64,000 nucleotides of DNA from Squalus acanthias (lineage: Eukaryota). The position numbers and the translations under genes were made by a program. Below, one piece after another: positions 22,438 to 60,705 of this stretch. The notes under the pieces were generated by a model that was given only the letters and a program-made list of their open reading frames with translations, was not told where the DNA came from and searched no databases. Location of the stretch: the NCBI GenBank assembly GCA_030390025.1, contig CM059432.1:52330001-52394000 (forward strand), written 5' to 3'. Position 1 is the stretch's first letter, and every line of letters starts with the position of its first letter.

Positions 22438-23428
22438 AACCAACACCAGATTAACTGATCATTTCTCAATTCCTACTTCTGCTATTTTGCTGTGCACAAA
22501 TCAGCTGCTGTGTTTGCCTACAAAACCATCACCACACTTCAAAAAAGTAGTTTACTGGCTGTGGAAGGCACTATATGAAAGCAAGCTTGCTCCTTCTCTT
22601 CTCCCTTCAACACCAATGAAAAGCTTACTGGTCAATTTGTTACAATTAGGTCACTCCTTTACATTTTCAAATTATTTTTCCTCATTAAAACAGCAATTTT
22701 CACTGCAGTCACAATATTTCCATTCAAAAGCAGACCACAATCTGCTTCTAGGCCTCCATCCTCCCAACTGTGATCCAACTAGCTGCAACCCTTGTGTACA
22801 CAGGTGGGCTGTTTAAAATCTCCAAATGTTAACTTTATCTCAGTATTGGAGAAAAAGTGAATCCCAGCAGCAGAAGCTGAAATTGGCAGCCTAGGGAGCT
22901 GGGAAATTGAGCAGACATGCAAAACCTGAGCTATACGGAGAATGAAACAAACAGGGATTCTGGGTGATTGTAATAAGGATGGAGATAATGTACTGTTTGC
23001 TATATATGTTCATTCAAATGACCAATCTGTACATACAAGCCTGGCAAGTGTTAGAGAACTATTTAACTGTGAGGCCACCACAACCAAGCTCAAAGCTGCC
23101 TACATCCACTTCTCATTTTCAAGAGAGTTCACTGGATAGCAACATGGAGTAGTAACCTTGGTTACTGTTCTTCCCTAATTGAAGGGGAGTGATCAGGCAT
23201 AGTACCCTGCTTCAATTACCTTCCCTTTCATATTAGGCAGTTCACTGATGATTTTACAGTTCAGTTCCATTCACAACTCCTCCAATAACAAAGAAAGACT
23301 TGCATTTATATAGCGCCTTTCATGACCACCGGACGTCTCAAAGCGCTTTACAGCCAATGAATTATGTTGATTGAGGGATAAATATTGGCCAGGACACCAG
23401 GGATAACTCCCCTGCTCTTTGAAATAGT

Positions 23429-24034
23429 TGAGAGGTCGCACAACACCAGGTTATAGTCCAACAGTTTTATTTGAAATCACAAGCTTTCGGAACTATCGCT
23501 CCTTCCTCAGGTGAAGTAAATTGGATACAGAATCGTCAGAGCATATATAGATGGAAAAAAAAGCATGTGTACTTTACAATTGCAGACCAATAAATTAAAT
23601 CATCCTGACTATCTGCCGAGGTGTGATAAAGTTAATTAAGTCAGCCAGGAAGGTACCACATCAAAAGACATAGCAAGATACAACTGAGACAATGAGGTGA
23701 AGTCGCAGGGGTTCTAACGTGTCAAAAGCTGCCGTCTGTATGTAAAACGAAAAGCTTTAAAAAAAAAAAAATTTACTTTTTTACTGGGAAAATTTTTACT
23801 TTTTTACTGGGAATCACATCTGTGAACAAGCTAACGACGACTCGAGTCCGGATCACGTCATGTATCGTGACATAAACCCAAGATCCCGATTGAGACCGTC
23901 TTCATGAGTGCAGAACTTGGCTATCAGTTTCTGCTCGATGATTTTGCGTTGTCGTGTGTTTCTAAGGTTGCCTTGGAGAACGCTTACCCGCAGATCCGAG
24001 GCTGAATGTCCTTGACTGCTGAAGTGTTCCCCGA
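23429..24034 (-). mobile_element. Penelope family A 3' fragment inside a Deu-type SINE
   Basis: Near-identical to 38680-39279; TSD CTTTGAAATAGT (23417-23428, 24035-24046). Confidence 0.92.
23477..23514 (-). ncRNA. Minimal type I hammerhead motif, family A (sense to MYL12 intron 1)
   Basis: TCAC-CTGAGGA-a-GGAGC-gata-GTTCC-GAAA-GCTT-GTGA. Confidence 0.8.
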
Positions 24035-24249
24035 CTTTGAAATAGTGCCATGGGATCTTTACGTCCACCTGAGCGCAGACGGGGCCTCGGTTTAATGTCG
24101 CATCTGAAAGACGGCACCTCCGACAGTGCAGCACTCCACTGGAGTATCAGCCTAGCTTTATGTGCTCCAGTCTCTGGAGTGGAACTAGAACCCACAACCT
24201 TCTGACTCAGAGGCAAGTGTGCTACCTACTGAGCCACAGCTGACACTGC

Positions 24250-41041: not shown

Positions 41042-41894
41042 GGGGGAGAAATTCAGTATCGCCCCGTTTGGGGCGCAATTATCAGCCGGGCGCAAAGTTT
41101 AGCGCTAATTATCGCCTCCAACTGCAAACTTGGCTTCTATCGCCCCTGGAGGTGATTGGAGCGCTAAATCAGGCGCTACACACCTCTCTTAAGGCGCTAA
41201 CGCCGAGGAGCGAGGCGCTACCTCAGAGCGCTGGCGAAGCTCATGTGATGTCAGTCAGCAATGGAACACAGACACACTGGCGCTGGCCAGTTCTTAAAGG
41301 GGAGGGTCGATCTGCTCATTGCAGCCTTGAATCTCGGCCTGGAGAGACCTGTACATCAAATCTGCTGGAAAGAACAATGAAGAGCTCAGAGTGCAGCCCC
41401 CATAATCTCTTCTAAATCGATGCAAGGAAGGTCAAACCAAAATGAACCTGCAAAGTGCTGCAGAGTACCCAAAACTCCTTCACACAGTGTTGAATCTCTC
41501 CCGAAGTCTCTCTCTCTCTCTCTCAGAATGCGTGGTGCAAAAATGTCACCAACAAAAAAAGGCAGGAAGCGGTCGCCTTTAAATAGCACTCCCCCGTCCC
41601 TTCCCAACTGCAAAACGTTCCCCTCAACCTGTCATTGTTAGCGGCAGGCAGAAAGGCAGGGGGCGCCACTCAATATCCGGTCCGGGGCGCTACCGGGGCG
41701 TTGCACGCTCGACTGACGTCACAATCTGCGGGCGCAGGAGATCATGGCGGTAGTGTTTAGCGCCGCCGTAAAATGTCTGGTCAATTTCGCGAGCGGCGCA
41801 AACATCGCCGCACCCGGGCACTAGTTGCTTTGCGTCCCATTAGCACCCTCTGAGGGCACTAACGGGAGGCGCAAAGCAACCGAATTTTTCCCCC
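41042..41894 (+). mobile_element. Non-autonomous Harbinger MITE related to the 54693-58858 element
   Basis: TIRs GGGGGAGAAATTC / GGGGGAAAAATTC; TSD ATA (41039-41041, 41895-41897); both arms align with the ends of the full element; inserted in CR1. Confidence 0.92.
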
Positions 41895-44399: not shown

Positions 44400-46190
44400 G
44401 CCAATCCTCTCTCTCCCCCTTCGATCCTCTCTCCCCTTCGATTCCCCCTCCCCCTTAGATCTCCTCTCTCCACGCCCCTGATCTCCTCTCTCTACTACCT
44501 TCAATCTCCTCTCTCCCCCCTGCGATCTCCTCTCTCTCTTTCCCCTTCAATCTCCACTCTCTCCCCCCTCCAATCTCCTCTCTCTATCTCCGATCTCCTT
44601 TCTCTCACCCCTCCGATCTCCTCTCTCCCACCCCCCTCCGATCTCCTCTCTCCCACCCCCCTCCGATCTCCCCTCTCTCTTCGATCTCCTCTCTCTCTTC
44701 CCCCTTCGATCTCCTCTCTCTCTCTCCGATCTCCTCTCTCTCTTCGATCCCCTTTCTCTCCCCTCCCGATCTCTTCTCTCTCTCTCCAAGCTCTCTCTCC
44801 CCACCTCCGATCTCTCTCTCTTTCCCCTTCGATCTCCTCTCTCCCCCCACTCCGATCTCCTCTCTCTCTCTGATCTCCTTTCTCCCCCCTCCGATCTTCT
44901 CTCTCTCTCCTCCTCCGATCTCCCTCTCTGTTCTCCTCTCTCTCTCCCCGATCCTCTCTCTCCCCCCTCTGATCTCCTCTCTCTCTTCCGCCTTCAATCT
45001 CCTCTCTCTCCCCCTCCGATCTCCTCTCTCTCTCTCTCCGATCTCTCTCTTGCGCCTTCAATCTCCTCTCTCCCCCCCTCTGATCTCCTCTCTCTCTCTT
45101 CATTCTCCTCTCTCTCTCTCCGATCTTCTCTCTCTCTCCGATATCCTCTCTCTCCCTCCCTTCGATCTCCTCTCTCTCTTCTCCCTTCGATCTCCTCTAT
45201 CTCTCTCCGATTTCCTCTCTCTCTGTTCTCCTCTCTCTCTCTCCGATCCTCTCTCTCTTCCCAGTCCAGTCCCCTCGCTCTCCCTCTTCGATCTCCTCTC
45301 TCTCCCCCCTTCGATCTCCTCTATCTCTCTCTCCGATCCTCCCTCTCTCCCCAGTCCAATCCCCTCGCTCTCTCTCTCCGATCTCCTCTCTCTCCCTCCC
45401 TCCGATCTCCTCTCTCCCCCTTCGATCTCCTCTTTCTCTCTCTCTGATCCTCTCTCTCTCCAGTCCAATCCCCTCGCTCTCCCACTCCGATTTCCTCTCT
45501 CTCCCTCCCTCCGATCTCCTCTCTCCCCCTTCGATCTCCTCTATCTCTCTCTCCGATCTCCTCTCTCTCCCCAGTGCAATCCCCTCGCTCTCTCTCTCCA
45601 ATCTCCTCTCTCTCCCTCAACTTCAATCTCCTCTCTCTCCCCCCTTCGATCTCCTCTCTCTCCCCCTTCAACCTCCTCTATCTCTCTCCGATCTCCTCTC
45701 TCCCCAGTCCAATCTCCTCTATCTCTCTCTCCGATCTCCTCCTGCCCTTCGATCTCCTCTCTCTCCCCCTTCGATCTCCTCTATCTCTCTCCGATCTCCT
45801 CTCTTCCCCCCCTTCGATCTCTATCTCTCTCTCCGATCTCCTCTCTTTCCCCAGTCCAATCCCCTCTCTCTCCCCCCTCTGATCTCCTCTATCTCTCTCC
45901 AATCTCCTCTCTCCTTCCCCCTTCGATCTCCTCTATCTCTCTCTCCGATCCCCTCTCTCTCCCCAGTCCAATCCCCTCTCTCTCCCTCCCTCCGATCTCC
46001 TCTCTCTCCCCCCTTCGATCTCCTCTATCTCTCTCTCGATCCCCTCTCTCTCCCCAGTCCAATCCCCTCACTCTCTCTCTCGCTCCAATCTCCTCCCCCC
46101 TTCGATCTCCTCTATCTCTCTCTCCAATCCCCTCTCTCATCCGCCCCCCCTCCGATCTCCTCTCTCCCCTGTCGATCCTCTCTCTTCCCC
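44400..46190. repeat. 1.8-kb polypyrimidine minisatellite (CGATCTCCTCTCTCTC..., with CCCAGTCCAATCCC variants)
   Basis: Directly visible; almost purely C/T on the + strand. Confidence 0.95.
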
Positions 46191-47979
46191 CCCACCACCA
46201 ATGGATCCCCTGATCTTCTCCGCATGGAGCTGAGGAAAGCCTGGCCCACGGAGCAGGCCACAACGGTTGGGTACTGTGCATGTGCGGCTCCGGAATACTG
46301 TGCGCATGTGCAGAAGGCCGCAAAGGTGTTCGTGCAAATAATCACAGTGGTCAGTTAAATGCTGGGTGGGGGGTGGGCCGAGGACAGTGGGAAGGGGAGT
46401 CGATTGTGGCCTTTAGGGGTACTGTCAAACTGGGAGAAGCATTCTTGCTCCTCCTGACTCCACCTGAATTAAAATATATATATACCTTTCCGGTGGTGAC
46501 CGCTGCGTAGGCCAGGAAAACCTGAGCGGAGAAGGCTTGACATTTGCTCCATTCAGGGCAACCCAATTTCTCAGAGAGGTCTAAAACAGGCCGTAGGCCC
46601 CTTATTAGCATATGCAAGAGGCCTAATGCCTGTTTTAAGTGGCTGATAATCAGGCTTTTCATGCTTCCTTGGGGTGCATAGCCCTGTGAAATTGTTAATT
46701 TTGGGGCCTCTTCTCCGGATGATGACCCATTTCTAGCCCTCAGTGTTACCCATGTTAAGGCCCATGGCAATACTCCATATAAATATTACCGTGGATTCGT
46801 GGCCTGTTTATTTAAATATGCGGTACCTTTAAATTTGCAGCGGCCGCGCATGGACAGTATCTTCAACGGGACAGCTTATGGACAGCCTTCGTGGTACCCT
46901 CACAGATTGCTGCGTGGCCGCGCACCCACGCAGCTTGCAGGGAACATTGATCCAAGGTATAATTGAACTGAGTGCTTGACGCTGGCATAGGTTAATCAAA
47001 GTGCAAAAATGTCCCATTAACAATGTCCCATCACGTTGATGAACACAAAAATACACCAAAAAGTAATTAAACAGAAATCAGAATTGATGAGAACTGTTTT
47101 TTAAATGACAAGTAATTATCATATCTCTACAAAGGGAACATATTTTGAAGAATTCAATGATGGTATTTTGCCCTTTTGATATTTAAAAAATGAACAGGAA
47201 CTAGGAATAATTTGCAGAACTTACAGCTTGCCACATTTTTAAAAGCTTCACACAAACCACTTCATTAGAAGATAATACAACTTCAATGAAAACAAAACTA
47301 TTCTGATGCAAATAGACTTCCAGGTTTAAAAAATGTCAGGCAGATCAAAATAATAACATCAAAGGACTCAGCTTTTTAAAGGTGCAAATCAGATCCAAGT
47401 TCAGGATTGATGCCACCAACCAACATCGAAAATGTGGCAATGTTCAATGATACTTTGCAATTCCTGACTGGAATGTTGTAAAAAAAACATTTATCACAAT
47501 GCGGCACTTACTGCTTTTCCCTCCATTCTTTTTCCAACATGAAATGAGTAATTCTATCTGTACATTATTGCACCTGCTACCTCAGTGAAGAATCCCATGT
47601 GTACCTTGTTAAATAGACTGTATAGAAGTTGTATTGATAACAGTGTAAATATGAAATTTATTTATTGCCATGAGCTTGCAAAGAAACTTCACAACTCATT
47701 GAAATGATTCAGTTTAACTTCTTCAGTGGCAATACCAGCACAGCTCACATCTGATGACATAAACTCAATGAGATTTTCCCCTTCCTATACCCATGGGTTT
47801 ATAATGAGCTCTGCTATGAGTCAGATTCTACTATTAAATATTGTGAACGCATGTTTTAATTATTGGTTCAAATCCACAAAAGATTCATACCAGGGCACTG
47901 AAAATCTGTGCGGTGGAAACTTCTACCCGTTTCTTACAAGGTAAATGTCAGAGGGCAGAGCTGGGGGCCAAGATTCATA

Positions 47980-48872
47980 GGGGGAAAAATTCAGTTGGTT
48001 GCGCCTCCCTTTAGCGCCTTAAGAGGGCGCTAATGGGGCGCAAAGCATCTAGCACCCAGGCGCGGCGATGTTTGCGCCACTCGTGAAATTAACTAGACAT
48101 TTTGCGGCTGCGCTAAACACTACCGCCACGATCTCCTGCGCCGGCAGATCGTGACGTCAGTCGAGTGCGCAACGCCCCGGTAGCGCCCCGGAGCAGATAT
48201 TGAGTGGCGCCCCCTGCCTTACCGCCTGCCGCTAGCAACGACAGGTTGAGGGGAGCGTTTTGCAGTCAGGAAGGGACTGGGGGAGTGCTATTTAAAGGCG
48301 ACCGCTTCCTGCCTTTTTTTGTTGGTGACATTTTTGAACCACGCATTCTGAGAGAGAGAAAGAGAGACTTCTGGAGAGATTCAACGCTGTGTGAAAGAGT
48401 TTTGGGTACTGAGCAGCACTTTGCAGGTTCATTTTGATTTGCCCTTCCTTGTATCGATTTAGAAGAGACTGTGGGGGTTGCACTCTGAGCTCTTTCCCTG
48501 GGCCTCTCCATTGTTCTTTCCAGCAGATTTGATGTACAGGTCTCTCCAGGCCGAGATTCAAGGCTGCAATAAGCAGGATGTGGATGGAAAGCAAGATCAA
48601 CCCTCCCCTTTAAGAACTGGCCGGCGCCATTGTGTCGGTGTTCCATTGCTGACTGTCATCACATGAGCTACGCCAGCGCTCTGAGTTAGTGCCTCGCTCC
48701 TCGGCCTTTGCGTCTTAAGACAGATGTGTAGCGCCTGATTTAGTGCTCCAATCACCTCCAGAGGCGATAAAAGTCAAGTTTGCAGTCGGAGGCGATAATT
48801 AGCGCCAGGCGCTAATCTTTGCGCCCGGCCGATAATTGCGCCCCAAACGGGGCGATACTGAATTTTTCCGCC
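47980..48872 (-). mobile_element. Non-autonomous Harbinger MITE, second copy
   Basis: Reverse-complement homologue of 41042-41894; TSD ATA (47977-47979, 48873-48875). Confidence 0.92.
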
Positions 48873-49545
48873 ATAGAATCATAGAATGATACAGCACAGA
48901 AGGTGGCTGTGTAGCCTATTGTGCCTGTGCCGGCTCCTTGAAAGAGCTATCAAATTAGTCACACTCCCCTGCTCTTTCTCCATAATCTTGCAAATTTTTC
49001 CACTTCAAGTATTTATCCAATTCCCTTTAAAAAGTTATTTTTGAATCTGCTTCCACCATCCTTTCAGGCAGTGCATTCCACACCATAACAACTTGCTGCG
49101 TAAAATTTTGTTTCCTCATGTTGTCTCTGGTTCTTTTGCCAATTACCTTAAATCTGTTTCACGTTGAAGACCTTTTGTCAAAAAGGTCATCGACCTGAAA
49201 CGTTAACTCTGTTTCTCTCTCCACAGATGCTGCCTGACCTGCTGAGTATTTTCAGCATTTTCTGTTTTTATTTCAGATTTCCAACATCCGCAGTATATTG
49301 GGCCAAAAATTCGGCCCTTCGCGGGTGAGTACACAATGCGTACTCACCCGTAAGGCGTCCCGAAGTGTCGGTTTCCTGCATGCACTGCGCATGCACGGGA
49401 AACCGGAACTTCCGGTCTGGTGAAGGGGGCGGTTCAGAGGTGAACCGCATGCGTGGGAGAGGCTGCGCGCACGCAGCAAACTTAGGTTTTTTTTCAGGTT
49501 TCTCCGGGAGGTTAAGTATTGAAGAACCTGCGCTTTTAAAAAGGA

Positions 49546-50505
49546 CGACGAACACCTCGCTAAGGCCATCCCCACGCCTCCACTACTTGCCTTCAAACAG
49601 CCGCCTAACCTCAGAAGTACCATCGTTCGCAGCAAATTACCCAGCTTTCAGGATAACAGCGACCACGACACCACACAACACTGCCACGGCAACCTCTGCA
49701 AGACATGCCAGATCATCAACACAGATACCATCATCACACGTGAGGACACTACCCACCAGGTACATGGTACATACTCATGTGACTCGGCCAACGTTGTCTA
49801 CCTCATACGTTGCAGGAAAGAATGCACCGCGGCATGGTACATCGGCGAGACCATGCAGACACTGAGACAACGTATGAACGGACACCGCGCAACAATCACC
49901 AGGCAGGAGTGTTCCCTCCCAGTCGGGAAACACTTCAGCAGTCAAGGACATTCAGCCTCGGATCTGCGGGTAAGCGTTCTCCAAGGCGGCCTTAGAAACA
50001 CACGACAACGCAAAATCATCGAGCAGAAACTGATAGCCAAGTTCCGCACTCATGAGGACGGCCTCAACCGGGATCTTGGGTTTATGTCACGATACATGAC
50101 GTGATCCAGACTCGAGTCGTCGTTGGCTTGTTCACAGATGTGATTCCCAGTAAAAAAGTAAAAATTTTAAAGTTTATCGTTTCCCATACCGACTGCGGCT
50201 TTTGACACATTGGACCCCCTGTGACTCCACCTCATTGTTTCAGTTGTATCTTGCTATGTCTTTGATGTGGTACCTTCCTGGCTGACCTGATTGCCTTTTG
50301 TCACACCTCGGCAGATAAACAGTCAGGATGATTTAAATGTAGTCGTCTGCCATTGTAAGTTACACATGCATTGTTCTCTATCTATATATGCTTTGTCGAT
50401 TCTGTATTTCTTTACTTCACCTGAGGAAGGGGCCACGTAAGCTCCGAAAGCTTGTGATTTCAAATAAAACTGTTGGACTATAACCTGGTGTTGTGCGACT
50501 TCTCA
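49546..50505 (+). mobile_element. Penelope family A 3' fragment (GIY-YIG end, 3' UTR, pLTR)
   Basis: Homologous to the 51701-52270 ORF end; 12-bp TSD TTTTAAAAAGGA (49534-49545, 50506-50517). Confidence 0.92.
50417..50457 (+). ncRNA. Minimal type I hammerhead motif, family A
   Basis: TCAC-CTGAGGA-stem II-GAAA-GCTT-GTGA. Confidence 0.8.
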
Positions 50506-51700: not shown

Positions 51701-53180
51701 TCACGTTCTGTATCGTGACATGAACCCGATATCGCGATTGAAGCCATCCTCATGAGTGCAGAACTTGGCTATCAGTTTCTGCTCTATGATTTTGCGCTGT
51801 CGTGTATCCCGAAGGCCGCCTTGGAGAACGCTTACCCGCAGATCCGAGGCTGAATGCCCCTGACTGCTGAAGTGTTCCCCGACTGGGAGGCAACCCTCCT
51901 GCCTGGCGATTGTTGCACGGTGTCCGTTCATACGTTGTCTCAGTGTCTGCATGGTCTCGCCGATGTACCATGCTCTGGGGCATCCTTTACTGCAACGTAT
52001 CAGGTAGACAACGTTGGCCGAGTCACATGAGTATGTACCATGTACCTGGTGGGTAGTGTCCTCACGTGTGATGATGGTATCTGTGTCCATGATCTGGCAT
52101 GTCTTGCAGAGGTTGCCGTGGCAGGGTTGTGTGGTGTCGTGGTTGCTGTTCTCCTGAAAGATGGGTAATCTGCTGCGAACGATGGTACTTTTGAGGTTAG
52201 GCGGCTGCTTGAAGGCGAGTAGTGGAGGCGTGGGGATGGCCTTAGCAAGGTGTTCGTCGTCATCGATGACATGTTGAAGGCTGCGAAGAACATGGCGTAG
52301 TTTTTCCACTCCGGGGAAGTACTGGACGACGTAGGGTACTCTGTTGGTTGTGTCCCGTGTTCGTCTTCTGAGGAGGTCTATGCGGTTTTTCGCTGTGGCC
52401 CGTCGGAACTGTCGATCGACGAGTTGAGCGTCATATCCCGTTCTTACGAGAGCGTCTTTCAGTGTCCGTAGGTGTCCATCGCGTTCCTCCTCGTCTGAGC
52501 AGATCCTGTGTATTCGCAGGGCTTGTCCATAGGGGATGGCTTCTTTAACGTGGTTAGGGTGGAAGCTGGAGAAGTGGAGCATCGTGAGGTTGTCCATGGG
52601 CTTGCGGTAGAGTGAAGTGCTGAGGCGTCCGTCTTTGATGGAGATTCGTGTGTCCAAGAATGAAACCGATTCTGAGGAGTAGTCCATGGTGAGTTTGATG
52701 GTGGGATGGAACCTGTTGATGCTATCGTGTAGTCCTTTCAGTGATCCTTCGCCGTGGGTCCAAAGGAAGAAGATGTCGTCGATGTATCTGGTGTACAGCG
52801 TTGGTTGGAGGTCCTGTGCAGCGAAGAAGTCTTGCTCGAACTTGTGCATGAAGATGTTGGCGTATTGGGGTGCGAATTTGGTCCCCATGGCTGTTCCGTG
52901 TGTTTGGGTAAAAAAATGGTTGTCGAAGGTGAAGACATTGTGGTCAAGGATGAAGCGGATGAGTTGTAGGATGGCGTCCGGAGATTGGCTGTTGTTGGTG
53001 TTGAGTACTGAGGCTGTCGCAGCGATGCCGTCATTGTGGGGGATATTGGTGTAGAGTGCCGATACGTCCATCGTGACGAGGAGTGTTCCTGGTTCAACTG
53101 GTCCATGGGTGCTGAGTTTCTGCAAGAAGTCTGTAGTGTCGCGACAGAAGCTGGGGGTTCCCTGTATGATGGGTTTCAGG
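51701..53180 (-). CDS. Penelope RT + GIY-YIG endonuclease, N-terminally truncated but uninterrupted
   Basis: RT motifs MDVSALYTNI, GTAMGTKFAP, RYIDD; CxxxxCxxC knuckle; VYLIRCSKGCPRAWYIG (GIY-YIG with Cys insert, Neptune-like). The first ~30 aa of the track ORF come from the inverted pLTR. Confidence 0.9.
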
Positions 53181-53219: not shown

Positions 53220-55052
53220 AAATTAAATAAATCTGTTGGACTATAACCTGGTGTTGTGCGACTTCTCATTTTTGTCCACCCCAGTCCAACGCCGGCATCT
53301 CCACATCATGACCTCTATTCATAAAGCCAAGGATCCCGTATGTCTTTTGAACAGCCTTCTCAGCTTGTCCTGCCATCTTCAAAGACTTGTGTACATACAC
53401 CCCCAGGCCTCCGTTCCTGCGCCCACTTTCAAATTGTGCCTTTTAGTTCATATTGCATCTCCTCATTCTTCCTACCAAAATGAATCACTTCACACTCCTC
53501 TGCATTAAATTTCATCTGCATGTGTTTGCCCATTTCACCAGTCTGTCTATGTTCTCCTGAAGTCTGTTACTACCCTCCTCACTGTTTACTACATTTCCGA
53601 GTTTCGTGTTACCTGCAAACTTTGAAATTATGCCCTGTATACTCAATTCCAAGTTATTAATATATATCAAAAAGAGCAATGGTCCCAACACCGACCCCTG
53701 GGGGACACCACTGCACACTTCCCTCCTGTCTGAAAAACAACTGTTCACTTCTACTCTCTGCTTTCTGTTCGTTAGCCAATTTCATATCCATGCAGCCACG
53801 GTCCCCTTAATTCCATGGACTTCAATTCTGCTAACAAGTCTATTATGTGGTACTTTGTCAAACACCTTTTGAAAGTCCATATACACAACATCAACCACAC
53901 TATCCTCATAAACCCTTTCCGTTACTTCATCAAAGAAGTCAATCAAGTTAGTCAAACACGGTTTGCCTTTAACAAATCCGTGCTGGCTTTCATTTACTAA
54001 CCCATATTTTTCCCAGTGCCAATTAATTTTGTCTTGGATTAAAGTCTCTAAAAGTTTCCCCACCATTGACGTTAGGCTAACTAGCCTGTGGTTGCCAGGT
54101 TTAACACTCGCCCCCCTTTTTTAAACAGGACTGTAACATTTGCAATCCTCCAGTCTTCTGGCACCACTCCCATATCTAAGGACAATTGGAAGACTGTGAC
54201 CAGAGGCTCCGCAATTTCCACCTTTACTTCCCTCAGCAATTTTGTATGCATCCCATCCGGTCCAGGTGACTTTTCTACTTTGAGCGCTGCCAAGCCTTTT
54301 AGTACCTCCTCTTTATCTATTTTTATCCTATCTAATTTCTCAACTACCTCCTAATTTACTGTGACATTGGCAGCATCCTCTTCTTTAGTGAAGACAGATG
54401 CAAAGTACTCATTTAGTGCCTCAACCATGCCCTCTGCCTCCATAAGATAATCTCCTTTTTGGTCCCTAATCGGCCCCACCCTTCCTTTAACTACCCTATT
54501 TATATGTTTATAAAAGACTTTTGGGTTCCCTTTTATGTTGCTCGCTAATCTATGCTCATACACTCTCTTTACCCCTCTTATTCCCTTTTTCAGTTCTCCC
54601 CTGTACTTCTTGTATTCAGCTTGGTTCTATACTGAATTATGAACGCAATACTTATCATAAGCCTCCTTTTACTGCTTAATTTTAGTCTCTATGGGGGAAA
54701 AATTAGGTCGCGCCCCGTTTGGGGCGCAAATATCGTCTGGACGCAAATATTAGCGCCTGGCGCTAATTATCGCCACTGACTGGAAACTTCACTTTTACCG
54801 CCCCGGGAGGTGAGTGGAGCGCTAAATCAGGCGCTGCACACCTGTCTTAAGGCGCAAAGGCCGAGCAGTGAGGCGCTAACTCAGCGCGCGAGCGCAGCGC
54901 AGGTGCTGCCAGTTAGCGAGGGAACACAGACACACTGGCGCCGGCCAGTTCTTAAAGCGGGGGGGGGCCAACTTGCTCCCCAGCCACACCCTGCTCATTG
55001 CAGCCTTGAATCTCGGCCTGGAGAGACCTGTGAATCCATTTTGCTGCCAAGG

Positions 55053-56872
55053 ATGGAGAGGGTGAGAGAACGAGCTCAGCGCTTCACCGAGCGGGCCTTG
55101 GATGCTCTGGTTGGCGCGGTGGAGTGCAGAAGATGTATACTCTTCCCTGAGAGTGGCAGGAGGCCTTTGCCACGCGAGTACAGAAGAGTGTGGAGGGAGG
55201 TGGCTCAGAGCGTCTCCTCCAGGAGCATGGTGCCCAGGACCCATGTTCAATGCCGCAAAAAGTTCAACGACCTCACTCGGGTCGTCAGGGTGGGTGGCTT
55301 TTTCTCAATACCTCTCCATCCCTCCATCTCAACCTCACTCTATGGCCAGAGGGTCTTAAAACCCCAATGCACAACACTCATCCAACACCTATGGCCCTTT
55401 CATGAAACACACACACACATTCCACACTTTGCATACAGTAAGGGCTATTCACCTATGGGAGGCACATCAGGCAAGACCATGGCTGCATACAGTAAGGGCT
55501 ATTCACCTATGGGAGGCACATCAGGCAAGACCATGGCTGTATATTTACTCAGATGCTGTCCTTTTTCTTGCAGGCCAAGCTGGCGCATAATAGGAGACAG
55601 CAGCAACGGACAGGTGGAGGGCGGCCTCAGCTGCAACCCCTCAGCGATCTGGAGGAGCGCGTCCACAGGATTGTGGCAAGCCGGGTGATCGGTCCCGTCG
55701 CCACTGGAGACGCCGACCCCGTTCTGGACAGCAATGGTAAGGTCATCACCTTTTTGTCCTCTGTCCTTCCACTTGTCCCTCACAACACCAGCCTTTGACA
55801 CTTTCAATCCAACTTGCTAACTCACTGCACTTATTCCTCCCTTACTGCCACCCTGTCCTCACGCTAAAGCCACTCTTGTACCTCCCTGCTTTCAGATGGT
55901 GATTCACCAGCTGAGGAGACGGGCCCTGAAGCTGCCAGTGGGAGTGAAGCTGCAGCCGAGGAGGAAGAGGAAGCTGGAGCATCAGTGCCACCCTCTCCCG
56001 AGGAAGCCCATGCCCACACTGGGAACACGCCTTCCCTGGAGGGGAGCAGGGGGGAAGGGTCTGATGAGGGTGAAGCTCCAGGACCCAGTGGGCTGCAGCA
56101 ACGCCATGGGGGTAGGGAAGAACGGAGGCCTTCTCCCCAGAGGGAGAGTATGCCAGAGACTCCTACTGCAATGGACGCAGAGGAGGAGCGGCTGATCGCA
56201 GAAATGAACACCCAGGCGGTGGGCATGCACACTGAGCTCATGGTTGCAGTGGGAAGGGTGCCCGAATGCATTGAGTCACTGGCAAGGAGTGTGGAGCACT
56301 TCGCTGTAGCACAGGCGGATGCCACACTAATGCTTAGTGCTGCAATTCAGTCACTGACTGCCGTGATCCCATCTCTGACTGCTCTCATGCAGACTCAGAT
56401 TGAGGCCACGCGAGCACAGACTGCTGCCAACCTCGATGGTTCGTTCACATGTCCCTGGGGCTCTCACCGCGCCGCAGCAGGCCAGCAATCTGTGCTCCAG
56501 CAGATTGCTCCGGAAGCTGAAGTGCTGCCCCGTGGGAGTGCCAGTGTGTCGGGCGAGCAGGGAGTTGCTGTCCTCTCTCACGATGACAGCATTCCTGCTG
56601 CCAACACTGTCACTTCTCCACTGCACTTGCCACCGCCTGTAGGACAGACTGCTGCCGCCCATGCAGAGTTGGTGCAGTCTGCAGCCGGGCCCTCCAGGCC
56701 CAGAAGTGGTCGAGGCCGTCCTTCAGGGGCATCTGCAGTGTCAGGGTCTGACGATCAGCAGCCTTCCACCAGCCTTGCTGCAGCCACTGAGGTCCCATTA
56801 TGGAGGAGCAGTAGGGTTAGAAGGGGGGAAGTGCGCAAGGGAAGGAGATCACCCTCGAAGGGCAAAAAGTAG
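55053..56872 (+). CDS. Harbinger Myb/SANT-like DNA-binding protein, spliced 55053-55289, 55574-55736, 55896-56872 (458 aa)
   Basis: RFTERALDALV...WREVAQSVSSRSMVPRTHVQCRKKFNDL trihelix/Myb motif and RTGGG motif; GT-AG introns with matching phases (0 and 1); open through to TAG; basic C-terminus RVRRGEVRKGRRSPSKGKK. Confidence 0.88.
55431..55538. repeat. Perfect 54-bp tandem duplication in intron 1 of the Harbinger Myb gene
   Basis: GCATACAGTAAGGG...GACCATGGCT twice. Confidence 0.95.
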
Positions 56873-57184
56873 GAGGTGTGACAAAATGGTGGTCATTTTT
56901 TTATTAAAGGCTGAGGTTCGTGGTCCAACTTTTGTTTAGTGTTTTGGACATTATCTCCAGGTTGTGAGAACCAGTTATGTTATTGACTGTTTTTTTGTGT
57001 TTATTTCTATGAATTTATCATGAGGAAATGACACACACAGAGTTCGTAAAATAAATAAGTTTTTGTATTCAAAATATACATGTTTGGTGTTTGGAATTAT
57101 TGGTGCCTTGGCCGGCTTAGGGGTTGCGTGCTGGGTACATTGCTGTTGTTAGCAATGGCAGAAGCCATTTCCACAGCAGGGGCC

Positions 57185-58345
57185 CTAGAAGCGGCTTGCT
57201 ATCAGCCGTTGACGGACGGCCCTTGCAGTTTCACCATTGTGGGCCGCCCTCCTGCCTTGGTGCTGCTGATGATCATCCTCCTCGTCCTCTTCCTCCTCTT
57301 CCTCCTCCTCCTCTGGTGGTGCTCCAAGGCCTGGTGGCATTGGCTGGGTCCTGACGATTGCCATGTTATGCAACATGCAGCACACAACTACGAAGTTGGA
57401 TACTCGCTCAGGCGAGTACTGCAGGGCTCCTCCAGAATGGTCGAGACAGCGGAACCGTTGCTTCAGCACGTCGATTGTGCGCTCAATGATGTTCCTGGTA
57501 GCTTGATGGCTCTCATTGTACCGCAGCTCAGCAGGGGTGTTGGGCGTATGGAGCGGTGTCATCAGCCAGGTGCTCAATGGATACCCCTTGTCCCCGAGAA
57601 GCCAACCAACTGGCTGATGCGGTGCCTCGAAAAGTTCTGCCACAGTAGTCTGGCGCAGGATAAAAGCATCGTGGCAGCTGCCAGGATAGTGGGCATTGAC
57701 AGCGAGTATCAGCTGTCTATGGTCACAGACCAACTGAACATTCAAGGAATGGAACCCCTTTCTGTTCCGGAATTCCTCGGCATTCTCATGTGGAGCACGC
57801 AAAGCCACATGCATGCAGTCAATGGCGCCCTGCACCATGGGGAAGCCCGCTATCCTCGCAAAGCCCAGAGCGCGGTCATGCTGCTTGTCTGGAGTCATGG
57901 GGAAAGAGATGAACTCTCTTCACCTTTTAAAGAGGGCATTTGTGACCTGCCAGATGCAGCAATGCACCGTGAACTGGGAGATATTGGCGAGGTCCCCAGC
58001 AGCAGCTTGAAATGAGCCAGTAGCATAGAAGTTGAGAGCCACTGTGACCTTCACTGCCACCGACAGAGACGTCCTGGACCTCAGTTGAGGCTGCAGCTCT
58101 GGCTGCAGCAGGTGGCAGAGCTCAGTGACCACCTCCTTGCTGAATCGCAGCCTTCGCAAACACAGCTCCTCAGACATATGAATGTAGGAGAGCTGTTCAC
58201 GATATACCCTGGGAGGGTAAGCTCTCCTGTACATACGCCTGTTGGCCCTCCTCCATCTGGCCATCATTGCCACTGTCTCTCTGCGTCTCTGTGTCCTCTG
58301 ATTCAGCTGGAGCAGGACGACGCCCCCAATCAGTGCAGCCCCCAT
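57185..58345 (-). pseudogene. Harbinger (HARBI1-like) DDE transposase, 386 codons with a single in-frame TGA at 57922-57920
   Basis: HTH region LRFSKEVV..YATGSFQ; catalytic motifs [30 protein letters not shown]; the 164-aa and 237-aa ORFs share a frame, separated by TGA plus 7 codons. Confidence 0.92.
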
Positions 58346-59374
58346 AGTCTCTTTGCAAGCAAAGTAATGAAGGACAGCAACCAAAGTACCAGCGAAGTTA
58401 GGATCAGTAGGCAAAACTACCTCACAAAGCGTTGACTCAATGCAGAAGTCTCTCTTTCTCTCTCTCCGAATCTCTCTCTCTCTCTCAGAACGAGTGGTGC
58501 AAAAATGTCAACCACAGAAAAAGACAGGAAGAGGCCCCCTTTAAATAGCGCCCCCCCCCCAGCCCCACAGCGATTGATAGCGTTCCAGTCTTCCGGTCGT
58601 TGGATGCGCCAGGCGGTAAGGCAGGGGGCGCCACTCAATTTCCGCTCCGGGGCGCCACAAGGGCGTTGCACCATGGAATGACGTCACAATCTGCGCGCGC
58701 AGGTGGTCGCGGCGGTAAGGTTTAGCGTCGCCGCACAATGTCTAGTTAAGTTCCCGAGCGGCGCAAACATCGCTGCGCCCGGGCGCTCGCGGCTTTGCGC
58801 CCCATTAGCGCCCTCTTAAGGCGCTAACGGGAGGCGCAACCAACTGAATTTTTACCCCTATATCTTTAGTCATCCAGGGAGCTCGAGCTTTGGATGCCCT
58901 TCCTTTCCCCCTCATGTCTAGTCTGTACCCAAACTATCTCCTCTATGAAGGCCTCCCATTGCTCATTTACTGTTTTACCTGCCAATCTTTGATTCCAATC
59001 AACCTGGGCCAGATCCCTTTTCAACTCACTAAAATTAGCCCTCCTCCAGTTGAGTATTTTCACATTTGATTTTTTTCTTGTCCTTTTCCATAACTACTCT
59101 AAACCTAATGATATTATGATCACTGTTTTTCAAATGCTCTCCCACTAAACATGCTCCACTTCATTCCCCAGAACTAGATCCAGCACTGCTTCCTTTCTCG
59201 TTGGGCTGGAAACACACTGATCAAGAAAGTTCTCCTCTACACATTTCAGAAATTCCTCCCCCTCTTTGCCCTTTACACTGTTATTTTCACAGTCTATATT
59301 AGGATAATTGAAGTCCCTTATTATCACTACTCTAAAGTTCTTGCATCTTTCTGCAATTTGCCTGCAAATTAGTG

Positions 59375-60705
59375 AGCACTTAGAGATGCATGAGATAATC
59401 AAGGACAGCGAGCAAAAGATTTGTTAAAAGCAAGTTGTATTCGACAAACCTAACAGAGTTTTTTGAAGAAGTGGCTAATTGTATAGATAAAGAGAATGCA
59501 GTAGATGTGATGTAAATGAATTTTCAGAAGGCGTGAACAGGAAGATCGTTACAAAACTTTAGGTGTCTGGTGTAAGAGGAAATGTAGCAGCAGTTGGTTG
59601 ATGAACAGGAAGCAAAGAGGGTGAATTTTTGTGGGGTTCTCTTGCTCGTCTACCACAAATTCAACAGAAAACACTGGAAAAAGATGGTTAAAAAAACTCA
59701 GGAAGACATGGACAAGTGGAATGGATGGACAGGAGGCAGGTGCAACTTAATACAGAGGTGAGGAAAACAAAGACTTGAGAGTACACAATCAATGCAAAGT
59801 GCTGAATGGTGTTGAGGAACAGAGGGGTTCAAATGGATACTTTCTAGAATGTGCAAGTAGATAAATTCATAAAAATGGCCTTTTTAATAGGGACATAGAG
59901 TATAAGAGCAAAGAGGTTATGGTAAAACGAAAGAAAGACTTGCATTTCCATAGCGCCATTCACAACCACCGGACGTCCCAAAGCGCTTTACAGCCAATGA
60001 AGTACTTTTTGAAGTGTAGACAGTGTTGTAATTTAGTTAAATTTGTCCAAGGCAATGGTTAAGACACAGTTACTATGGGGATAATTTTACCCGAACCGCC
60101 CGATGGGAAACTGATGGCGGCCGATCCGAAACCGTTATTTTCTCGCTGGGCAGGCTAGATTAAAATTAGCCCCATTTCTGTAGTTTGGAGGCCCAATAGT
60201 AGAAAGAAATTAAAAGCCATATCGAGCCTACAGCATCGATTCACCAGGATGATATAAGGGATGGGAAAACATAGTTCTGAGGAGAGACTCGAGATACTGG
60301 AACTATTTCCACCAGACTAGTGAAGGTTAAGAGCAGATTTAATCAAGGTTTTCAAAATTATGATGGGTTCTAATAGATTGAATAGAGAAATACTATTTAC
60401 TCTGGTTTACAAATAATGATGAGGGGTCATCAATTTAAAATTGATACTAAGAGAGTAAGGAGATGGGTGAGGGGAAATTTCTTTAAACAGAGAGTTTTTG
60501 GAGCATGGAATGCTTTACCATTGGGAGTAGTTGAAGCAGGCCAATGCATCTTTTAAGAGAAGAGTAGAAAAACATTTTAAGCAGAGGAAGATACAGGACT
60601 ATGGGGATAGAACAAAGCTATGGGATTAGTTTAGGATTGCTCCAACAAATACCCAGCACAGACACAATGGGCCAAAAGCTCCCTTCTCTGCTGTAACCTT
60701 CTATG
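59375..60705 (+). mobile_element. Old CR1 RT/3' fragment
   Basis: Degenerate homology to the other CR1 copies; interrupted by a SINE tail and a mini-MITE. Confidence 0.7.
60077..60173. mobile_element. Very short MITE-like element
   Basis: TIR GGGGATAATTTTA / GGGGCTAATTTTA interrupting a CR1; TSD not clean. Confidence 0.45.

Follow-up and report, generated by a model that had tools for sequence, protein, structure and literature searches.

The question raised by this stretch of DNA, a window of 64,000 nucleotides from Squalus acanthias (assembly GCA_030390025.1, contig CM059432.1), is whether the Harbinger-type DNA transposon copy found in it is one nucleotide away from an intact two-component system, as an earlier note on the sequence had claimed, or one more decaying member of its family. 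Two proteins are required for the transposition of these elements: the transposase, together with a Myb-like protein, which binds to the terminal inverted repeats (TIRs) as well as to the transposase and carries the latter into the nucleus (PMC2836001, PMC9179366). The copy analysed is an ordinary decaying family member and is not one letter from being active. With high probability it is a full-length, broken copy of a two-gene transposon of Harbinger type whose family is very abundant, inserted in a decayed long interspersed nuclear element (LINE), and its premature stop codon arose most likely by neutral decay after the insertion.

The evidence for this answer comes mainly from sibling copies in sequencing runs. 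The stretch or part of it is present in 20 of the 23 runs listed, from 10 studies, and six organism labels hold at least 0.43 of the words of the element, the best reaching 0.72-0.78; the shares of organisms C-F (0.44-0.47) are not taken as sequence identity. Four of the 23 runs were aligned: two DNA runs (X1 and X2) and one putative RNA run of organism A, and one putative RNA run of organism B, the RNA nature of X8 and X18 being guessed, with a splice joint as its sole support. Contigs cover 30 of 30 bins in all four runs, with 41,752 records in X1 and 62,287 in X2. We infer that the family is very abundant, its ends being deeper than its middle; summed depth is not used as a copy number. At position 57922 of the plus strand, where the stop at codon 142 of the transposase begins, T is found in 322,118 of 322,118 units of depth in X1 (40 contigs), in 262,101 of 262,402 in X2 (47 contigs) and in all the depth of X8 and X18, so that siblings read AGA in the four runs (100% of the depth in X1, X8 and X18, 99.9% in X2). 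The stop is therefore an A-to-T transversion and not CpG decay. Siblings with an open codon 142 thus exist in bulk, and the case in which all of them carry the stop does not apply; an intact sibling is implied, no listed contig piece spanning the element.

The earlier note had derived the stop from CGA (Arg) by CpG deamination; in this version the copy is otherwise intact and very young, and reverting one base would give an active element. Arginine was rightly proposed as the original residue, as it is the commonest at column 142 (73 of 118 relatives) and the one read in the siblings. Besides, the family has a CGA codon, at codon 143, one codon downstream, where the copy has AGA; the copy keeps all 81 strongly conserved columns (at least 80%), and 0.11% of the X2 depth at 57922 is another letter. 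However, the sibling codon largely refutes this explanation, which is also opposed by further private changes (a Gly-to-Asp change at codon 292, G292D, and six missense changes in the Myb gene) and by the left TIR, which after base 12 no longer agrees with the right end or with the left ends of two non-coding relatives in the window. It is considered extremely unlikely.

The private changes of the copy were drawn from the 40 variant rows shown out of 331, which were chosen by support; 35 of them lie in the element and 34 were tabulated, row 58018 being left out because it is driven by the RNA runs. At 19 of these 34 sites the copy differs from at least 85% of the depth in both DNA runs. These sites comprise the six Myb missense changes, the stop, G292D, two synonymous and nine non-coding changes, five of the 19 being CpG decay. 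A second private transversion, at 57919, lies 3 bases from the stop and is synonymous in codon 143. With 19 private differences, eight of them protein-changing, the description of the copy as one nucleotide away from intact has to be abandoned, and the TGA, which is the only visible lesion in the bare sequence, is no longer so after the comparison with siblings. The copy is not potentially autonomous either, in the sense of having both open reading frames (ORFs) intact in one copy, the transposase being stopped at codon 142. If 1% of the bases were substituted at random, the Myb frame would stay open in an expected 64% of copies and the transposase frame in 67%, about two thirds in each case, so a near-intact copy is unremarkable. 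Some private substitutions fall in close pairs (57013/57017, 57137/57143 and 57919/57922), a pattern of multi-nucleotide mutation or local error.

Several points weigh against this account. In X2, 301 of 262,402 units of depth at 57922 are not T; contigs drop rare alleles, so the stop base of the copy has no independent confirmation by any run; and organism A may not be the species of the window. The private tally and the nonsynonymous ratio cover a part of the variant rows and favour private sites, the ratios being indicative only, and the transversions at 57919 and 57922 may stem from a single mutation event or from an error in the local assembly. The harm of G292D is judged from conservation and position only, and 33 of 115 relatives have another residue at this column, many of them being evidently decayed or catalytically altered.

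Related to this, the stop and its neighbour at 57919 could be an assembly consensus error, the true locus having an open transposase frame. The stop base is reported on no contig in X1, X8 and X18, and two transversions only 3 bases apart would fit such an error; on the other hand, contigs drop rare variants, the 17 other private substitutions (five of them CpG decay) suggest real ageing, as does the absence of frameshifts from 2.5 kb of coding sequence, and G292D would remain in any case. This is very unlikely. The differences could also be those of a separate subfamily or of a species lineage absent from the runs compared, for which speak the doubt about organism A and the fact that the best runs contain just 0.72-0.78 of the sampled words. 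Nevertheless, organisms A and B have the same alternative letters at the private sites, and a stop together with an excess of protein-changing substitutions is not expected to be fixed by a propagating lineage, which leaves this explanation scarcely credible.

The transposase gene gives a Pfam match to DDE_Tnp_4 (E=3.8e-39) and keeps the catalytic residues D176 (57820-57818), D252 (57592-57590) and E288 (57484-57482). A structure was predicted for codons 143-352 from 69 sequences (mean predicted local distance difference test, pLDDT, of 91; model numbering is codon minus 142). In this model D176 lies in strand 29-40, D252 just past strand 106-108 and E288 in helix 129-155, and the predicted order of strands and helices is RNase-H-like. 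Foldseek gave no row at E<=0.001, its weak rows having integrases and transposases on top, and the search of solved structures by sequence gave no match at E<=0.01. D292 is placed four residues after E288, one helical turn further in the same predicted helix, and the column has Gly in 82 of 115 relatives and Asp in one. Because of this conservation and this position, G292D is likely a second lesion of the transposase. As the siblings carry a sense codon, readthrough and recoding of the TGA were rejected. If translation started again at Met150, the product would be 237 amino acids long, with the triad kept, the N-terminal 149 residues lost and D292 present; this was judged unlikely to work. Upstream of the gene and of its candidate leader intron, a TATA-like word near 58545 (seen by eye) and a GA repeat are found.

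The second gene, of Myb/SANT type, is encoded on the plus strand by three exons separated by GT..AG introns and gives 458 amino acids with one terminal stop, its exon joints being the sole working GT/AG combination among the offsets scanned. Exon 1 matches Myb_DNA-bind_5 (E=1.6e-09, 38 bits, cut-off 21.7), whereas no Pfam family was matched in exon 3. The search of representatives gave 69 relatives and the 'longer' search with exon 1 one match among 90 candidates; the junction between exons 1 and 2 is crossed in register by 54 of the 67 aligned relatives (70 submitted). Within intron 1, positions 55430-55537 hold a 54-bp sequence duplicated perfectly in tandem; the 15 splice joints listed out of 113 do not include that of intron 1, which speaks neither for nor against its use. 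Splicing of intron 2 is seen in the family: the joint 55736/55896, proposed in the earlier note, is found on one contig of X8 (short side of 19 bases) and two of X18 (41 bases), in neither DNA run, and unspliced contigs are likewise present.

It has been shown that Harbinger Myb genes were repeatedly domesticated in vertebrates (PMC9392472), and the intact frame and splice sites might suggest that the host keeps the copy as a source of Myb-like protein, by incipient domestication or as a trans-acting helper. Against this, the Myb gene has six private missense changes and no private synonymous change was seen in it, chance alone would leave the frame open in 41-64% of copies when divergence is 1-2%, and many siblings could supply the protein. 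Besides, at the six private Myb sites (55125, 56126, 56357, 56456, 56515 and 56801) the contigs of the putative RNA runs show the family allele, so that expression of the copy itself, and with it the supply of Myb protein in trans that the earlier note had envisaged, lacks support. Retention by the host is thus highly unlikely. The first of the six changes, R25C in exon 1, falls at a variable column.

In the decay that we favour, the mechanism would be as follows. By analogy with Harbinger3_DR and Ping/Pong, the Myb-like protein would bind the ends, and through it the DDE transposase would reach the nucleus and the TIRs; together they would excise the element and insert it in a favoured target (here Y|TAT|R), and end-only derivatives could be mobilised by these two proteins as well. 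After insertion the copy would have gathered about 1% of private changes without selection (eight protein-changing to two synonymous were seen). The stop at codon 142 and probably G292D would disable its transposase and, without a full-length one, the copy could be moved only by the transposase of a sibling, if its left end works. The coordinates of the element, its surroundings and its relatives in the window are collected in Table 1.

Table 1. Features of the Harbinger-type element, its host LINE and its non-coding relatives (positions of the window; TSD, target site duplication; MITE, miniature inverted-repeat transposable element)
Feature	Positions	Strand	Details
Full-length Harbinger-type DNA transposon copy	54693..58858	no strand	4,166 bp, two convergent genes
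Left TSD TAT	54690..54692	+	direct flank; host LINE frame test
Right TSD TAT	58859..58861	+	direct flank; host LINE frame test
Left TIR, 12 bp	54693..54704	+	termini comparison
Right TIR, 11/12 vs left	58847..58858	-	termini comparison
Left subterminal region	54705..55052	+	GGCGC/GCGCC words 25 per kb vs 1.8 per kb inside
Right subterminal region	58500..58846	-	GGCGC/GCGCC words 36 per kb
Myb/SANT exon 1	55053..55289	+	Myb_DNA-bind_5; private R25C
Myb intron 1	55290..55573	+	GT..AG; junction from protein homology only
Myb/SANT exon 2	55574..55736	+	gene model, homology
Myb intron 2	55737..55895	+	GT..AG; spliced contigs in X8, X18
Myb/SANT exon 3	55896..56872	+	low-complexity, basic C-terminus; five private missense changes
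Transposase gene, ATG 58345 to stop 57185	57185..58345	-	386 codons; DDE_Tnp_4
Premature stop TGA, codon 142	57920..57922	-	context AGG-TGA-AGA; sole internal stop; siblings AGA (Arg)
Codon 292, Asp	57470..57472	-	Gly in 99% of sibling depth and 82/115 relatives; likely second lesion
Candidate 70-nt intron, transposase 5' leader	58351..58420	-	donor, branch-like and acceptor motifs by eye
Decayed host LINE ORF2, downstream part	53325..54689	-	RVT_1
Decayed host LINE ORF2, upstream part	58862..59423	-	Exo_endo_phos_2
Non-coding relative (MITE), 853 bp	41042..41894	+	76-78% to element ends; TSD ATA
Non-coding relative (MITE), 893 bp	47980..48872	-	77-83% to element ends; TSD TAT in element orientation

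Every position given in the earlier note holds, and the TIRs, the TAT duplication, both genes and the TGA are confirmed. The TIRs start with G and their pairing (11/12) is lost past about base 12; an inverted match of 11/12 at the spacing of the element occurs at one of 59,827 start positions of the window, which is the element itself, with its 3-bp direct flank. The GGCGC-rich subterminal blocks are candidate binding sites for the Myb protein. The earlier note called the CpGs well preserved. The observed/expected CpG ratio is 0.54 in the element and 0.37 and 0.17 in the flanking LINE, but it is driven by the ends (0.83-1.0), with 0.49 in the transposase and 0.39 in Myb exon 3. CpG content was rejected as proof of youth, since the ends of the MITEs, which are 76-83% alike to those of the element, have an equal ratio (0.85-0.86) and five of the 19 private changes are CpG decay.

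From the best word shares, a private difference of about 0.8-1.05% is obtained if all missing words are substitutions, which is an upper-side estimate because junctions and filters remove words too; the 19 private sites set a floor of about 0.46%. At the rate of the epaulette shark, 7e-10 per base per generation (PMC10587355), the range of 0.8-1.05% would correspond to 11-15 million generations, or to 6-75 million when the confidence range of the rate is taken into account, the rate being that of another species and methylated repeats mutating faster. A near-intact copy need not be recent in a shark, where about 1% could mean millions of generations.

The element is filed under the Harbinger/PHIS superfamily in the broad sense, and not in its narrow group, which agrees with the identity proposed in the earlier note. 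It has a DDE_Tnp_4 transposase with the triad, a Myb/SANT second gene, TIRs of 12 bp starting with G (those of the superfamily are mostly below 60 bp, with A or G as first base) and a 3-bp duplication, TAT, on both sides, 3-bp repeats being found at both MITEs too. Its TIRs are shorter than the usual 25-50 bp (PMC9179366) and inside the range of 5-1042 bp (PMC4482050). At the three sites of the window the duplication is TAT/ATA, which is neither the 5'-TWA-3' of the narrow PIF/Harbinger group (PMC4482050) nor the 5'-CWG-3' of NuwaI; with the NuwaII target C|TNA|G, the flanks agree at two of three sites and the third base of the duplication at none. NuwaI and NuwaII, whose duplications are CWG and TNA, resemble the element in having two ORFs, TIRs starting with GG or GGG and a size of 4.2-4.7 kb; NuwaII also shares the C before the duplication (three of three sites) and the G after it (two of three) (PMC4482050).

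Among the systems described, the reconstructed Harbinger3_DR of zebrafish is similar in its two genes (DDE transposase and Myb-like), short TIRs, end-only derivatives and a 3-bp duplication within a longer preferred site (PMC2836001, PMC3016246). However, its duplication is CWG within AAACACCWGGTCTTT, whereas that of the element is TAT/ATA within Y|WWW|R, and it was shown to be active in human cells; the two elements are compared here by their descriptions. Harbinger-Snek of sea kraits is, like this family, a high-copy vertebrate Harbinger nearly identical between species; it occurs as full-length, single-gene and non-coding elements, RNA reads cover both of its genes, and intact copies number 269 in one species and one in the other (10.1101/2021.06.13.448261). 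It was shown to have been acquired horizontally, whereas the sharing among six labels here could be due to a slow shark clock.

At the protein level, 235 relatives of the transposase were found at E<=1e-20, of which 120 were listed, 115 of these being from sharks and rays, with a best identity of 66%. In a quick tree of 40 hand-picked from the 120 listed, the copy groups with sawshark proteins. Shark and ray proteins named 'putative nuclease HARBI1' share 45-66% identity with it, the nearest among those listed being P0001 of Pristiophorus japonicus. The host gene HARBI1 is single-copy and immobile; as the element is bounded by TIRs and a TSD and has siblings in great number, this name is inapplicable to it.

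The host LINE is presumably CR1, and two of its five fragments were above the cut-off in the domain search. After removal of the element its frame is kept for 0 and 3 extra bases only, among six removal lengths tried, in agreement with a duplication of 3 bp. The window has no paralogous empty site that spans the insertion point. The two MITEs are 87.6% alike mutually, with ATA as plus-strand duplication in both; since their similarity to the element ends is 76-83%, they are probably sister families of the element. The three insertion sites (54690-54692, 41039-41041 and 47977-47979) all read C|TAT|R on one strand, with C|TAT|A at one of them and C|TAT|G at two. A target preference Y|WWW|R with TAT/ATA duplication is offered as a lead, with n=3 and two of the sites belonging to sister-family MITEs. 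The sites of the element and of the first MITE (41039-41041) have a longer similar flank in common, which suggests an extended target preference. The second MITE is inserted in a ATCATAGA-type repeat, which we take to resemble the 3' tail of a LINE.

Regarding the spread of the family, longer pieces of organism B deviate from the copy in 10 bases out of 610 and in 8 out of 318, mostly where organism A does too, a pattern that fits a burst older than the split of A and B or horizontal spread. The near-identity across organism labels may likewise reflect a slow clock or horizontal spread. Scans of metagenomes gave 0 confirmed cases among 622 pattern matches and 0 matches to the 25-base end motif. 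Loose ends recur in DNA and putative RNA runs at 56755-56789, 57865 and 54921-55031; they point to diverged sister subfamilies sharing blocks with the element. The 24 rows of loose ends listed, out of 2,302, contain none at the termini, from which the TSDs of siblings would follow.

PIF-Harbinger is listed in the repeat annotations of whale shark and grey reef shark (PMC8455134, PMC12498223), and in a study of 2022 (PMC9179366) no Harbinger was found in the elephant shark and other cartilaginous fish were proposed for study. No description of a full-length shark Harbinger element was found in the literature searched; Repbase and Dfam, which were outside the search, may already list it. It is doubtful that the family is still transposing in living sharks; it would then be a naturally active vertebrate Harbinger of two components, nearly identical across at least six organism labels, whose TAT/ATA duplication is unlisted and whose target preference is Y|WWW|R. 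In that case no reconstruction would be needed to use intact siblings in an assay and, if mobile, they would be a basis for a vertebrate Harbinger tool. The copy itself matters little, as one decaying member of a large family whose near-intact state is expected. Studies of target choice could start from this shark family, which is transcribed, spliced and high in copy number and has a duplication other than TWA.

Some minor observations are added. Among the relatives, the sawshark model P0007 (523 amino acids) holds both Myb_DNA-bind_5 and DDE_Tnp_4 and is probably an annotation fusion of two genes. In the quick tree of 40 proteins, five clades of 'putative nuclease HARBI1' (SH-like approximate likelihood ratio test, SH-aLRT, 99-100) span genera or orders of sharks and rays with short branches and 63-89% identity: P0006, P0012, P0014, P0015, P0018 and P0023; P0021, P0022 and P0051; P0042 and P0044; P0011 and P0013; P0004 and P0005. 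The first clade, of six proteins, is divided between rays, galeomorph sharks and Heptranchias, and the full DDE triad is kept in none of them; the catalytic E is lost too in the pairs of P0042, P0011 and P0004. By their sequences the five clades are candidate domesticated Harbinger transposase genes of elasmobranchs, one of which may be true HARBI1, and no paper on them was found in the literature searched. In the rest of the window, dispersed repeats of about 0.9 kb and of another family, 83-93% alike, occupy 23312-24247, 38420-39387, 49544-50505 and 51701-52261; TIRs of the element type are absent at their ends. Finally, at 44400-46200 there is a degenerate CT-rich tandem repeat of about 1.7 kb with extreme strand skew.

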